Sequence record: OQ599310
DNA: 64,000 bases
Reading direction: 5' to 3' (one strand)
Source of the DNA: Escherichia phage 55
The notes beneath the pieces were generated by a model, which had not been told where the DNA came from, made no database searches, and saw only the letters and a list, made by a program, of their open reading frames with translations. The number at the start of each line of letters is the position of its first letter. The first letter of the stretch is position 1. The translations under genes were made by a program, and so were the position numbers. Below, piece after piece: positions 32,493 through 35,455 of the stretch.

Positions 32493-32768
32493 ATGTTCCC
32501 AACTTATTCTGAAATTGTAAAGGTAGTCTTCAGTCAGATTATTGCTAATAATATGTTTGAAGTGCTTGATAATGCAGCCGAACTCAGAGTTCATGCTCAA
32601 CTAACTCATGTACTCAATGCTTTGCTCCCAGACCAAGTAGATTCTATTGCTATTACTCTTCTCCCTGGGTCTGCACACGTCATAGTGGTATTTGATCTTG
32701 ACGGCGATTTAGTTATCCAATGTGATATCAATTTCGGTACACAAAAAATTGAATGCAAAGCAATTTAA
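32493..32768 (+). CDS. hypothetical protein (91 aa)
   Basis: ORF track. Confidence 0.4.
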   Translation: MFPTYSEIVKVVFSQIIANNMFEVLDNAAELRVHAQLTHVLNALLPDQVDSIAITLLPGSAHVIVVFDLDGDLVIQCDINFGTQKIECKAI

Positions 32769-32770
32769 TG

Positions 32771-32800
32771 GTTTACAACATGGTGGAGTTGTGATACTAT
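32771..32800 (+). promoter_or_regulatory. T4-type early promoter (GTTTAC, 18 bp, TGTGATACTAT)
   Basis: GTTTAC 32771-32776; TACTAT 32795-32800. Confidence 0.55.
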
Positions 32801-32828: not shown

Positions 32829-33065
32829 ATGCTAAGTGAAAACCCAATCACAGTACACGAATTTCAGATTAAAGTAAAAGAATTTGCTCAAGCACTCATC
32901 AATAAAGTGTCTGAACGTTTCCAAGATGCAACATTACGAGTTATTCAAGAATCTCCACGTTCTTTTCTCATAATCGTTAATCCTAAAGATGGTGACCAAA
33001 TTACTAATCTTAAATTAGGCAGTGACGGTCTTGTTGAAGCAACTCGAGTATATGGAACACTATAA
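32829..33065 (+). CDS. hypothetical protein (78 aa)
   Basis: ORF track; SD gaggaaatagaaATG. Confidence 0.45.
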   Translation: MLSENPITVHEFQIKVKEFAQALINKVSERFQDATLRVIQESPRSFLIIVNPKDGDQITNLKLGSDGLVEATRVYGTL

Positions 33066-33185
33066 TGAGAGCTATCTCATTACTATCGAGAATGGTCATA
33101 AATCTGAGCACTACCAACTTAGCCTGTCTAATCCGGTTAAAGGTATTGTTGAATCAGAATCTGTTTATATCTCCTAAGGATTGTT

Positions 33186-34178
33186 ATGTTACCTGTCGTC
33201 GGAAAACTTATTTCTCCAAAAGAACTGGCTGAGATTATTCCTTTGTCGGAAGCTTACGCATCACAAGTGGCTTCTCATCGCGAACAAGTTAATTCGATTA
33301 TGAACGGTGAAGACCCACGCAAACTTATTGTTGTAGGTCCTTGTTCAATTCATGACCCTATTGCTGCTGTTGAATACGGCAAACGTCTGGCTGAACTTCA
33401 AACTCGTCTTCCTAATGTTCTGTTAGTGATGCGCGTTTATTTTGAAAAGCCTCGAACTACCGTAGGTTGGAAAGGTCTTGTAAATGATCCATATCTTGAC
33501 GGAAGTTTTGATATGAACCACGGTCTTATAGTTGCACGAACATTGTGTCGTAAACTTCTACGTATGGGACTTCCATTAGCAACTGAAGTATTAGACCCAT
33601 TCACGATTAAGTATCTTTCTGGTATTTTCTCATGGGTTGCTATTGGCGCACGTACGACTGAAAGTCAGACACATCGTGAAATTGCTTCAGGTCTACCGAT
33701 GTGCGTAGGCTTCAAGAACGCAACCAATGGTTCTATTAAAGTAGCTACAGACGCGATGTATAGTGCCGCCTGGCCTCATCGGTATATGGGTATGGACGTC
33801 GATGGTACTGTAGGCATTGTTGAAGCTGAAGGTAATCAGAATACGCATATCGTATTGCGTGGCGGGACCAACGGCCCGAACTATCATTCTTCTGATATTC
33901 AAGAAGCTTCTAACAAAGCAAGGGCAGTAGGTCTGAATCATTATGTAATGGTTGACTGTAGCCATGCAAACGCTGATGGGCATTATATCAATCAAATTGG
34001 TATTGGTAAAAATTTAGCAGCTAATGATTTGGTCAAAGGAATTATGATAGAATCGTTCCTACATGAAGGAAATCAAAAAATTTCTGATAATATGTCCTAT
34101 GGCGTTTCCGTTACCGATGCGTGCATCAGTTGGGAACAAACTAAAGAGCTGTTAACTTATATTAATAAGGTTCAATAA
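33186..34178 (+). CDS. 3-deoxy-D-arabino-heptulosonate 7-phosphate (DAHP) synthase, class I (AroG/AroF/AroH-like)
   Basis: 330 aa; alignable along full length to E. coli AroG from memory: LIVVGPCSIHD, LLVMRVYFEKPRTTVGWKGL, AIGARTTESQTHRE, GFKNATNGSIKVA, HIVLRGG, ESFLHEGNQ, VTDACISW; metal-ligand Cys/His/Glu/Asp present. Confidence 0.85.
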   Translation: MLPVVGKLISPKELAEIIPLSEAYASQVASHREQVNSIMNGEDPRKLIVVGPCSIHDPIAAVEYGKRLAELQTRLPNVLLVMRVYFEKPRTTVGWKGLVNDPYLDGSFDMNHGLIVARTLCRKLLRMGLPLATEVLDPFTIKYLSGIFSWVAIGARTTESQTHREIASGLPMCVGFKNATNGSIKVATDAMYSAAWPHRYMGMDVDGTVGIVEAEGNQNTHIVLRGGTNGPNYHSSDIQEASNKARAVGLNHYVMVDCSHANADGHYINQIGIGKNLAANDLVKGIMIESFLHEGNQKISDNMSYGVSVTDACISWEQTKELLTYINKVQ

Positions 34179-34759
34179 TGAAAGCTAGCACATACCTTCA
34201 GATTGCATATCTGATTTCTCAAGAATCAAAATGTTGTTCATGGAAAGTTGGTGCCGTCATTGAAAAAGATGGACGCATTATTTCTACAGGTTATAATGGC
34301 TCTCCTTCAGGTGGTGTTAACTGTTGTGAACATGCATCCGAAAACGGTTGGTTGAAGAATAAACCAAGCCCGGTCATCGTTGCTGGGCATAAAGAAGGCA
34401 CTACAGCATTTGGACGGGTGGATAATTTTGTTTTGGCTAAAGAACATCGGGCTGCTCATAGTGCATGGTCCGCTAATAACGAAATCCATGCGGAACTGAA
34501 TGCAATTTTGTTTGCAGCTCGTAAAGGTAATTCTATTGAAGGTGCTACGTTATATACTACGCTTTCTCCGTGTCCTGATTGCACTAAAGCTATTACACAG
34601 TCAGGTATTAAAAAGGTTGTATATGCAGAATTATATGACCGATCTCCTGAAAATTGGGCAGACATTCTTAAACAAGCCGGTATTGAAGTAATTCAGTACT
34701 CTCGTAATAATCTTCGTTCTCTGAATTGGGAACAAATCCGAAACTTTTGTGGTGAATAA
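34178..34759 (+). CDS. cd: dCMP deaminase
   Basis: 193 aa; zinc-binding cytidine/dCMP deaminase motifs (HAELNAI, SPCPDC); same length as T4 Cd. Confidence 0.92.
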   Translation: MKASTYLQIAYLISQESKCCSWKVGAVIEKDGRIISTGYNGSPSGGVNCCEHASENGWLKNKPSPVIVAGHKEGTTAFGRVDNFVLAKEHRAAHSAWSANNEIHAELNAILFAARKGNSIEGATLYTTLSPCPDCTKAITQSGIKKVVYAELYDRSPENWADILKQAGIEVIQYSRNNLRSLNWEQIRNFCGE

Positions 34760-34760
34760 T

Positions 34761-35057
34761 ATGATTTTAACTGAACAAGAAACTATGGTTCTTCGTGAAC
34801 GTATTAAAACTATTCTGTCTGTAGGCGTTCATTGTGTTGTATTTGAAAAGGCTAACGGTGATGTTCGTACGATGTTTGCCTCCCGTGATGAACTTGAAGT
34901 CAAATACGAAAATAACAATCCGGCAACAGAAGTTCGTTATGAACCTCGTGAATCAGTTCGAGCATTCGATACCAAGTTAGGCCAGTGGCGTTCTTTCCGC
35001 CTTGATAAAGTAATTTCGGTTGATGGTACTCCGGTAGAACGTTTGCTTCTTATGTAA
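34761..35057 (+). CDS. hypothetical protein (98 aa), 31.x-position
   Basis: Start moved to ATG 34761; track start at 34749 is a GTG overlapping cd. Confidence 0.4.
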   Translation: MILTEQETMVLRERIKTILSVGVHCVVFEKANGDVRTMFASRDELEVKYENNNPATEVRYEPRESVRAFDTKLGQWRSFRLDKVISVDGTPVERLLLM

Positions 35058-35114
35058 TATGCTTTATGAATAGTATGGTATTATTAATCTATCGTCAAAC
35101 AACAAGGAAATAAG

Positions 35115-35447: not shown

Positions 35448-35455
35448 TATAAATA
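35448..35455 (+). promoter_or_regulatory. late promoter TATAAATA upstream of rIII
   Basis: Exact TATAAATA at 35448-35455 immediately after the gene 31 stop. Confidence 0.45.

Follow-up and report, generated by a model that had tools for sequence, protein, structure and literature searches.

The locus analyzed here raises the question of what a lytic phage gains from its own copy of the enzyme for the first committed step of the shikimate pathway, and whether such an enzyme would still respond to the aromatic amino acids that inhibit its cellular relatives. The gene lies in a 64,000-nucleotide stretch of Escherichia phage 55 (sequence record OQ599310; the window), a T4-like (Mosigvirus) coliphage, and forms an intact open reading frame of 330 amino acids with an ATG start (33186..34178, + strand). 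A Shine-Dalgarno sequence, AAGGA, can be read off the sequence at 33176-33180 (+ strand), 5 nt 5' of the ATG. As a sequence feature the gene is ordinary: many T4-like phages of enterobacteria carry it, and it has been catalogued as an auxiliary metabolic gene (AMG). It is annotated in over 200 phage genomes and is listed as PHROG 5045 (phrog_5045, "AMG"); it is called an AMG in PMC11845039 and is noted in PMC8022965. A preliminary description of the locus had made its novelty conditional on orthologues not being common in T4 relatives. They are common (212 phage records from at least five genera) and already annotated, and the claim of novelty was given up. Our literature search on phage DAHP synthases returned only mentions in genome papers and no work on function, be it enzyme assays, data on expression or a knockout phenotype; PMC11938785 was discarded because its topic is sedoheptulose. 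The gene represents an unexplored instance of a lytic phage controlling entry into aromatic and chorismate metabolism at its committed step. What the present analysis adds to this known gene is its rebuilt effector site. With moderate confidence, we view the product as a type Iα DAHP synthase of T4-like phages that is catalytically competent, probably expressed early, coupled to cd and most likely not shut off by Phe, Tyr or Trp.

Family, fold and catalytic residues

The open reading frame encodes a type Iα DAHP synthase. Profile, sequence and fold comparisons all agree with the full-length AroG/AroF/AroH-type assignment made in the preliminary description, and the catalytic residues align. 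The protein matched Pfam DAHP_synth_1 (PF00793) over residues 36-323 (6.3e-75, 252 bits, cutoff 25.5), NCBIfam TIGR00034 aroFGH (428 bits, cutoff 173, 1.7e-128) and NF009395 (454 bits, cutoff 343). Residues 5-327 could be aligned to E. coli AroF, AroG and AroH and to N. meningitidis DAH7PS with E-values of 9e-105 to 1e-80, the best one being obtained for AroF structure 6AGM. KDO8P synthase and other PF00793 members were ruled out by the aroFGH equivalog score together with the PDB matches. An AF2 model of the phage protein (pLDDT 92.3, pTM 0.92) gave Foldseek TM scores of 0.96 to 8E0U, 1KFL and 4HSO and an rmsd of 1.4 Å to AroG and NmeDAH7PS. The modeled (β/α)8 barrel carries the N-terminal helical extension as well as the β6a/β6b regulatory hairpin, which is kept at residues 198-214 with strands at 198-203 and 209-214.

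The metal ligands are C53, H260, E289 and D311, equivalent to C61, H268, E302 and D326 of AroG, and this Cys-His-Glu-Asp tetrad is invariant in 127 of 127 aligned sequences. The Cys, Glu and Asp had been assigned correctly in the preliminary description whereas the His had been sought in the wrong motif: the metal-binding residue is H260 in DCSHANA, and HIVLRGG instead carries the PEP-binding arginine R225 (AroG R234). Using the PEP/E4P-binding positions of AroG as reference (R92, the K97-P-R99-T motif, R165, K186 and R234), all substrate-binding residues were found to be present as R83, K88-P-R90-T, R156, K177 and R225. Each of the 10 catalytic positions checked (C61, R92, K97, R99, R165, K186, R234, H268, E302 and D326 in AroG numbering) is kept in 29 of 29 phage-clade proteins. 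Further, the alignment of 98 bacterial homologues contains 112 columns with a conservation of 93% or more, and the phage clade retains 104 of them. Based on these residues, the phage enzyme is predicted to be catalytically competent and would convert PEP and erythrose-4-phosphate to DAHP and Pi in a metal-dependent manner. Family, fold, metal ligands, PEP/E4P residues and hairpin are common to the phage protein and to E. coli AroF (6AGM/6AGL), AroG (1KFL, 1QR7) and AroH. In contrast to these three enzymes, the phage protein has two internal deletions, a shorter N- and C-terminus and a changed effector pocket, and its gene shows the AT-rich codon composition of a phage.

Distribution and history of the cassette

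The window gene is 99.8% identical at the DNA level to annotated Mosigvirus genes (139 records). Orthologues sharing 59-77% protein identity with it occupy the same pseT-cd interval in Kanagawa-, Marfa-, Winkler- and Bragavirus, and the same slot is filled in two metagenomic T4-like contigs. The phage proteins group into a single clade (NJ bootstrap 100/100) whose closest bacterial enzyme shows at most 53% identity, and the window protein is 51% identical to AroF, 47% to AroG and 43-44% to AroH. The phage-like, A/T-rich codon usage described earlier was borne out, with a GC3 of 29.6% that falls within the 17-35% of neighboring phage genes and below the 50-57% of E. coli aroF/G/H. Recent capture from a host is ruled out by the 51% identity to AroF, the low best bacterial identity and this difference in GC3. 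The lineage is confined to T4-like phages and has evidently resided there for a long time. The NJ sister P0105 was rejected as a donor, as it is an unremarkable bacterial chromosomal gene, its effector site is divergent and its position is probably due to long-branch attraction. Matches labeled "Acinetobacter phage MD-2021a" share their contigs with cobS and phosphatase genes and were hence treated as mislabeled bacterial DNA.

The gene is absent from RB69, T4, mar005P1, JK42, JK36 and moha, and is dispensable because RB69, T4 and several Mosigviruses do without it. Such non-essentiality would suit a passenger that does little or nothing for the phage, a remnant in decay, or an artefact of host DNA or assembly. 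Within Mosigvirus, only 4-10 substitutions with a dN/dS of 0.1-0.7 are seen, differences too few to gauge selection. Nevertheless, we consider this explanation hardly credible, given that the frame and all catalytic residues are intact down to 56% identity in at least five genera, that the 139 phage records carrying the gene are independent, and that both GC3 and best bacterial identity set the gene apart from host DNA. The call as an AMG stands: a cellular-type enzyme is encoded in a genuine phage genome, has phage-like composition, is conserved in relatives and sits where T4 and RB69 carry only small cd.x open reading frames.

The gene is flanked by homologues of pseT, cd.2, cd and gene 31. 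In T4, pseT, cd.5, cd.4, cd.3, cd.1 and cd are annotated and no DAHP synthase is found, in agreement with the preliminary description; an unannotated gap lies at the expected place of cd.2, and in RB69 cd.2 directly adjoins cd. The resident gene to the left of the insertion in the window is a cd.2 homologue of 78 amino acids (DUF7320 / phrog_1504; 32829..33065, + strand), which matched Pfam PF24005 with 1.5e-35 and phrog_1504 with 1e-37 and is 96% identical to RB69 Cd.2. The 120-bp spacer that follows contains a 41-residue open reading frame (33052..33177, + strand), annotated as a CDS in PECP20 and PNJ-6, whose residues 6-40 correspond to a diverged C-terminal half of cd.2 (phrog_1504 positions 44-76, 1.8e-05). 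By manual count on the alignment, it agrees with Kanagawavirus cd.2 at ca. 20 of 35 positions and with the window's own cd.2 at ca. 10 of 35. An imperfect direct repeat of 16 bp has its left copy, ATGAGAGCTATCTCAT (33065..33080, + strand), at the left insertion junction, which it marks; this copy agrees at 13 of 16 positions with the start of cd, ATGAAAGCTAGCACAT. The site is empty in RB69 and mar005P1, where the stop of cd.2 passes directly into this cd start, and BLAST matches of the empty-site junction reach 15-16 bp beyond the junction in filled genomes. The 41-residue frame is best read as a foreign cd.2 fragment, i.e. a recombination scar, which indicates that Mosigvirus acquired the DAHP synthase cassette from another T4-like phage. 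As such, the junction would represent a clean case of phage-to-phage transfer of a metabolic cassette in the plastic pseT-cd region.

In Mosigvirus the cassette abuts cd and has the cd.2-fragment scar at its left, and in Marfa-, Winkler- and Bragavirus one or two extra open reading frames lie between the DAHP synthase gene and cd. These small frames, one of which has 189 residues and thus roughly the size of a shikimate kinase, were considered as shikimate enzymes and rejected: they comprise an HNH/NUMOD3 homing endonuclease and frames without a Pfam match. In the window, cd (193 amino acids; 34178..34759, + strand) was confirmed as the dCMP deaminase gene named in the preliminary description by PF00383 (3.5e-26) and by synteny with RB69 and T4 cd. 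The DAHP synthase stop codon and the cd ATG overlap by one base (TAATG), an arrangement by which the two genes are evidently translationally coupled.

A T4-type early promoter-like site is located between cd.3 and cd.2 (32771..32800, + strand), 390 bp 5' of the DAHP synthase gene. It consists of GTTTACA, a 17-nt spacer and TG-n-TACTAT, thereby matching the scanned consensus TTTACA/17/TACTAT with extended TG. The site is near-identical to the T4 stretch GGTTTAC...TGATATTAT, at the position of an early promoter that the T4 record places between cd.2 and cd.3. Overall, the scan returned 15 promoter-like sites compared with 14.4 expected by chance, and terminators below expectation; of the promoter matches, we retained only the one with a T4 homologue. 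A MotA-box search yielded no middle promoter immediately 5' of the DAHP synthase gene, and a literature search for Mosigvirus transcriptomes gave nothing usable. The retained site, a conserved putative promoter, is likely the start of a cd.2-DAHP synthase-cd transcript, and the enzyme is probably expressed early.

The remodeled inhibitor site

The preliminary description had supposed that the phage enzyme lacks about 20 N-terminal residues relative to AroG and may be insensitive to feedback. The first part needed correction: the N-terminal deficit is 8 residues compared with AroG or 9 compared with AroF, and the remainder of the 20-26-residue length difference is accounted for by internal gaps, one around residue 277 and one around residue 298, plus a shortened C-terminal end. 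The segment before the conserved Pro comprises 8-12 residues in phage proteins versus 16-53 in bacterial ones. In the AroG structure 1KFL, the first N-terminal residues from the adjacent subunit presumably shut the inhibitor pocket.

More extensive changes are found in the pocket itself. The effector-site loop LDPFTIKYL (residues 136-144; 33591..33617, + strand) corresponds to the D146-Y152 region of AroG, with I141 in place of P150 and K142 in place of Q151. Of the 29 phage-clade proteins, 27 contain this motif, which the window protein has in common with the DAHP synthases of other T4-like phages; at the positions of P150 and Q151, bacterial homologues carry Pro (90 of 98) and Gln (97 of 98). 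In the GLP motif (residues 169-171; 33690..33698, + strand), Pro171 takes the place of AroG S180. This proline is found throughout the phage clade (29 of 29 proteins); of the 98 bacterial homologues, 96 have Ser there. Altogether, the effector-site changes fixed in the phage clade are P150I, Q151K, D155G, S180P, F209Y and T223A in AroG numbering. All of these except P150I, which is fixed too, are among the eight deviating conserved columns and make up five of them. K142, G146, P171, Y200 and A214 as well as the truncated N-terminus are fixed across phage proteins down to 56% identity. The canonical inhibitor pocket, defined by Q151, S180, P150, F209 and the N-terminus of the partner subunit, is not retained in the phage clade, and the phage enzyme scores below the NCBIfam equivalog cutoffs for both AroG (362 vs 568) and AroH (385 vs 463).

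In AroG, the P150L, S180F and F209A/S variants are feedback-resistant, Q151 is implicated in inhibition by Phe, the side chains of Q151 and S180 touch the inhibitor main chain and a salt bridge of D155 stabilizes the inhibitor site (PMC9529685). The phage enzyme is likely deregulated, i.e. insensitive to aromatic amino acids, because the clade-fixed changes sit where single mutations confer feedback resistance. The earlier guess of feedback insensitivity is therefore better supported than before, through the pocket substitutions in combination with the 8-9-residue truncation. Resistant AroG and AroF variants (P150L, S180F, F209A/S, D146N, Q151 variants and N-terminal-domain variants) were engineered or selected whereas the phage clade is naturally substituted at four of these positions (150, 151, 180 and 209) and truncated at the N-terminus. 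The phage residues (I, K, P and Y) differ from those of the resistant variants, occur several at a time and are strictly conserved; P150I, S180P and Q151K differ from the mutations tried experimentally. Metabolic engineers reach feedback resistance through mutations at those same positions. The phage protein may be a natural, long-evolved deregulated DAHP synthase, and the clade could supply ready-made feedback-resistant catalysts.

The pocket appears to be remodeled rather than decayed, so the site may have kept an affinity for an aromatic amino acid, held in a different manner, or may accept another ligand. The protein might then be an ordinary regulated extra isozyme that provides more enzyme after host shut-off and is still inhibited by an aromatic amino acid or another pocket ligand. 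Of 16 effector-site columns, 11 do not vary among the phage-clade proteins, compared with 34% of columns overall, which suggests that the pocket is still under selection; the hairpin and the N-terminal helices are kept in the model, and the lysine at the Q151 position (Lys142) could still pair with a ligand carboxylate. However, both side chains reported to hold the inhibitor main chain, Q151 and S180, are replaced, the equivalents of AroG residues 1-8 are missing and P150 has given way to a bulky aliphatic side chain, comparable to the leucine of the resistant P150L mutant. We regard continued regulation as a real but minor possibility.

Possible roles during infection

Relative to cellular enzymes, the phage lineage has shed the first 8-9 N-terminal residues and swapped the residues gripping the amino-acid moiety of the inhibitor (Q151K, S180P) along with pocket-lining ones (P150I, D155G, F209Y, T223A). 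As the most likely result, Phe, Tyr and Trp would be unable to switch the phage enzyme off and, with the host aro genes silenced, entry into the shikimate pathway would stay open irrespective of aromatic amino-acid pools. What the phage would presumably gain is either aromatic amino acids with which to build virion protein or pABA/folate made from chorismate, which would feed the synthesis of dTMP and hm-dCMP.

A simple rationale of more aromatic amino acids is weakened because feedback insensitivity would matter only when these are plentiful, i.e. when they are not limiting. The selected benefit might instead be chorismate-derived cofactors, especially pABA/folate, a proposal compatible with deregulation: a deregulated DAHP synthase would secure folate under conditions in which aromatic amino acids keep the host isozymes repressed and inhibited. 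T-even phages require folate for thymidylate and hydroxymethyl-dCMP synthesis. The gene lies within a nucleotide-precursor cluster, coupled to the dCMP deaminase gene, and in a metagenomic relative (L016) the same block contains frd (DHFR) and td, located a few kb upstream. On the other hand, seven inspected loci are without any other folate or chorismate-branch gene beside the DAHP synthase gene, the small frames preceding cd in other genera offer only a homing endonuclease and proteins without a Pfam match, and placement between pseT and cd may merely reflect a permissive insertion hotspot. We put forward the cofactor proposal as a tentative and rather improbable one. A related idea, which we consider unlikely, is that the allosteric pocket has been re-purposed and either locks the active state or senses a phage-relevant ligand, with chorismate being driven to folate/pABA for hm-dCMP and dTMP and not to aromatic amino acids.

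Only the first enzyme of the pathway is carried by the phage, with no downstream aro genes at the inspected loci, and a deregulated enzyme would presumably use up PEP and erythrose-4-phosphate unchecked. Both points would fit a sink for one or both substrates that rewires central metabolism (e.g. PTS activity or pentose-phosphate flux) and does not serve the supply of shikimate products. Pre-existing downstream enzymes of the host would, however, process the DAHP, and nothing in the strictly kept type Iα architecture points to a changed chemistry; we consider a sink very unlikely. The question of benefit is directly testable using natural phage pairs without the gene (moha, JK42, RB69) and with it (most other Mosigviruses).

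A DAHP synthase-like open reading frame of 387 amino acids in the 79-kb Aeromonas phage HJ05 offers a last comparison. It is likewise of type I with all catalytic residues and deviates at the same effector positions (S180P, Q151H and P150A), but it differs from the window protein in its low identity (38%), long N-terminus and unrelated genome context, and looks like an independent acquisition.

Identity and fold of the phage DAHP synthase

The open reading frame at 33186..34178 (+ strand) encodes a 330-residue DAHP synthase (DAHPS) and starts at an ATG that an AAGGA ribosome-binding site precedes by 5 nt. Its product matched Pfam DAHP_synth_1 (6.3e-75) and the NCBIfam aroFGH equivalog TIGR00034 (1.7e-128, 428 bits against a cutoff of 173), and scored under the cutoffs of the AroG-specific and AroH-specific NCBIfam models. 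The closest solved structures were E. coli AroF (6AGM, 9e-105), N. meningitidis DAH7PS (NmeDAH7PS) and E. coli AroG. An AlphaFold2 model based on a 70-sequence alignment (pLDDT 92.3, pTM 0.92) could be superposed on AroG and NmeDAH7PS with a TM score of 0.96 and an rmsd of 1.4 Å. Both the exact reading frame and the AroG/AroF/AroH family assignment proposed in the preliminary description were thus confirmed.

Using AroG numbering from the K-12 gene, metal ligands C61, H268, E302 and D326 align with C53, H260, E289 and D311 of the phage protein. All ten catalytic positions checked are kept in every one of the 29 phage DAHPS proteins, and of the 112 columns in which 98 bacterial homologues show at least 93% conservation, the phage enzymes retain 104. 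The Cys, His, Glu and Asp ligands are intact as had been described, with the correction that the His ligand lies in DCSHANA and not in HIVLRGG, which supplies the PEP-binding arginine R225. The N-terminus, put at about 20 residues short, is in the alignment shorter by 8 residues than AroG and by 9 than AroF, the rest of the length difference being accounted for by gaps at two internal sites and by a C-terminal shortening. This truncation is real since the sequence holds no in-frame start upstream of the ATG; the start position is also aligned identically across all phage orthologues.

Remodelling of the effector site

Eight conserved columns deviate in the phage enzymes: L16 (conservative), Q151K, D155G, S180P, F209Y, T223A, K273G and Q288x (AroG residue first). 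Of these, five belong either to the regulatory hairpin or to the site that binds the inhibitor. The substitution P150I, found in 28 of 29 phage proteins, is likewise fixed, and the resulting motifs are LDPFTIKYL and GLP. The deleted N-terminal stretch includes residues equivalent to AroG D6, D7 and I10 of the partner subunit, which we take to close the inhibitor pocket (1KFL structure). Among AroG variants, P150L, S180F and F209A/S are feedback resistant, and Q151 takes part in inhibition by Phe (PMC9529685). In the AroG-Phe and AroF-Tyr structures the side chains of Q151 and S180 contact the inhibitor main chain, and D155 forms a stabilising salt bridge (PMC9529685). That resistance can be engineered through the N-terminus is supported by the title of a cited work.

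A parallel is provided by the unrelated Aeromonas phage HJ05 (79 kb), whose DAHPS is 38% identical to that of the window and also carries S180P, together with Q151H and P150A. The HJ05 gene (comparison locus L017, 2899-4062) is a 387-aa DAHPS-like ORF annotated as 'hypothetical protein' in which all catalytic residues are present, possibly an independent acquisition that converged on deregulation. Based on the substitutions at known resistance or contact positions, the lost N-terminal residues and the HJ05 parallel, we consider that, on balance, Phe, Tyr and Trp most likely do not inhibit the phage enzyme. A caveat is that the pocket, once remodelled, has been strongly conserved: within the phage clade, 11 of 16 effector-site columns are invariant, compared with 34% of all columns. 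The remodelled pocket may still be functional, by holding the enzyme in its active state or by accommodating a ligand.

Origin, distribution and transfer

In a neighbor-joining tree of 127 aligned sequences, the 29 phage proteins (319-343 aa, 56-100% identical to the window protein) formed one clade with a bootstrap of 100/100. The best bacterial relatives reached only about 50-53% identity and span several phyla, namely Planctomycetota, the Kiritimatiellota-like Pontiella and Gammaproteobacteria including enterobacterial AroF. Across genera, identities of DAHPS (77, 67, 67 and 59%), cd, the dCMP deaminase gene (83, 78, 72 and 68%), and gp31 (85, 68, 67 and 48%) follow the same rank order. Given the phage monophyly, the distant bacterial relatives and the tracking with cd and gp31, the enzyme represents a long-established phage lineage and not a recent capture from a host. 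Codon usage is A/T-rich and phage-like as first noted: GC3 is 29.6%, which lies within the 17-35% range of the flanking phage genes and below the 50-57% of E. coli aroF/G/H. The metagenomic protein P0105 (JGI, L010 6001-7083) adjoins the phage clade and is a bacterial chromosomal DAHPS, with uvrC and a pgsA-like gene (CDP-alcohol phosphatidyltransferase) upstream and ABC-transporter genes downstream. Its effector site is non-canonical (QPMAAGY, GLP); its placement may reflect long-branch attraction or a naturally deregulated bacterial type.

The window region belongs to a Mosigvirus (RB69-like T-even phage). Its 4.26-kb stretch from pseT to gene 31 is 99.4% identical to Escherichia phage TH12, and the DAHPS gene shares 99.8% identity with those of CAU_ECP01, Shf125875, ATK47, phiC120 and others. 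Megablast matched 145 records (139 covering at least 80% of the gene) and tblastn 212 phage records. Orthologues occur in Kanagawavirus Entb_45 (77% amino acid identity), Marfavirus P545 (67%), Winklervirus X20 (67%) and Bragavirus phiP4-3 (59-60%), in each of these single representatives within the pseT-cd interval, and two basal metagenomic members sit in T4-like contexts. Counts of phage DAHPS are inflated by the matching records of 'Acinetobacter phage MD-2021a' (CAKLQH020000056.1, L018), which look like bacterial contigs filed under a phage name, as they encode cobS together with a histidine phosphatase and an alpha-ribazole phosphatase; we did not accept them as phage genes.

The family is catalogued as phrog_5045 ('moron, auxiliary metabolic gene and host takeover'), the phiC120 genome paper refers to DAHPS (PMC8022965), and a Klebsiella phage study labels it an auxiliary metabolic gene (PMC11845039). 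The proposed auxiliary metabolic gene call therefore holds while its novelty drops, as the preliminary description had allowed should orthologues prove common in T4 relatives. The interpretation is supported, for a feature that existing annotations already record. Literature searches aimed at the topic found no biochemical or genetic study of a phage DAHPS. The present analysis adds that the effector site is remodelled throughout the clade and that the phage enzymes are monophyletic to the exclusion of bacterial ones; it also adds the transfer scar described below and corrects the details on the N-terminus and the His ligand.

The T4 record, in line with the preliminary description, has only cd.x ORFs in the interval (pseT, cd.5, cd.4, cd.3, cd.1 and cd annotated, the gap at the place of cd.2 unannotated) and lacks DAHPS. 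The stop codon of cd.2 and the start codon of cd overlap in RB69 and mar005P1. Searching with this empty-site junction (at least 94% identity, junction uninterrupted) returned 11 records, including RB69, mar005P1, JK42, JK36, moha and ECO111 5-P, compared with about 139 Mosigvirus records with the insertion; DAHPS is dispensable in nature.

Gene comparisons indicate that Mosigvirus obtained the cassette secondarily, from a different T4-like phage. A 120-bp spacer between cd.2 and DAHPS holds a 41-aa ORF (33052..33177, + strand), a diverged duplicate of the C-terminal half of cd.2. Several genomes list this ORF as a hypothetical CDS, and it has its own PHROG (15876). Its residues 6-40 match positions 44-76, the C-terminal half, of phrog_1504 (cd.2 family), and by manual count of the alignment about 20 of 35 positions match Kanagawa- and Marfavirus cd.2 versus about 10 of 35 for the resident Mosigvirus cd.2. 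In Kanagawa- and Marfavirus, cd.2 directly precedes DAHPS. The 41-aa ORF is probably a recombination scar. The junction carries an imperfect repeat of the cd start (13/16; ATGAGAGCTATCTCAT at 33065, ATGAAAGCTAGCACAT at 34178). Precise secondary deletion between the two copies could also have generated empty sites, so that any single lineage may have either gained or lost the cassette.

When the window is compared with PECP20, synonymous divergence amounts to 0.01-0.04 for cd.2, the 41-aa ORF and DAHPS, against 0.17 for pseT and 0.30 for cd. In DNA, cd.2, the 41-aa ORF, DAHPS and gp31 of these two Mosigviruses are 99-100% identical, pseT 95.8%, cd 94.2% and cd.3 68.5% (32493-32768 vs L012 1404-1679), a strong mosaicism across a few kb. 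The low divergence of the cassette relative to pseT, cd and cd.3 shows that it moved or swept recently among Mosigviruses. Marfavirus P545 carries an HNH/NUMOD3 homing-endonuclease-like ORF between DAHPS and cd (L004 3480-4049), and in Mosigvirus WFbE185 the stretch from pseT to gene 31 is interrupted by a ~760-bp 'intron endonuclease'. Neighbouring cassettes such as DAHPS could be spread with the help of homing endonucleases in this region.

Expression context and possible role

The DAHPS stop and the ATG of cd (34178..34759, + strand) overlap by one base (TAATG). An early-promoter-like site (GTTTACA, 17 nt, TG-n-TACTAT) lies upstream at 32771-32800 (+ strand) and is near-identical to T4 sequence between cd.3 and cd.2, the position given for an early promoter in the T4 record; the site is conserved between Tequatrovirus and this Mosigvirus. 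Since no further promoter or terminator was seen in the sequence between this site and DAHPS/cd, early co-expression of the two genes is predicted.

After host shut-off, host DAHPS isozymes would not be replaced, and a deregulated phage enzyme would maintain carbon entry into the shikimate pathway. Insensitivity would matter only with abundant aromatic amino acids, and an attractive alternative is therefore that DAHPS serves other chorismate products, namely pABA/folate for dTMP and hm-dCMP synthesis; the sole observation pointing to this purpose is the location of the gene within a nucleotide-precursor cluster.

Downstream of cd, a gp31.1/31.2-like WYL_2 (Sm-like SH3) ORF (34749-35057) matches phrog_10657, labelled tail fiber, and several GenBank records name it 'tail fiber(s) protein', apparently a mis-annotation that has spread from record to record. 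The gene 31 homologue is closely preceded by a MotA-box middle-promoter-like site (TATGCTTTA ... TATTAT, 35058-35084) and immediately followed by a late-promoter motif (TATAAATA, 35448-35455).
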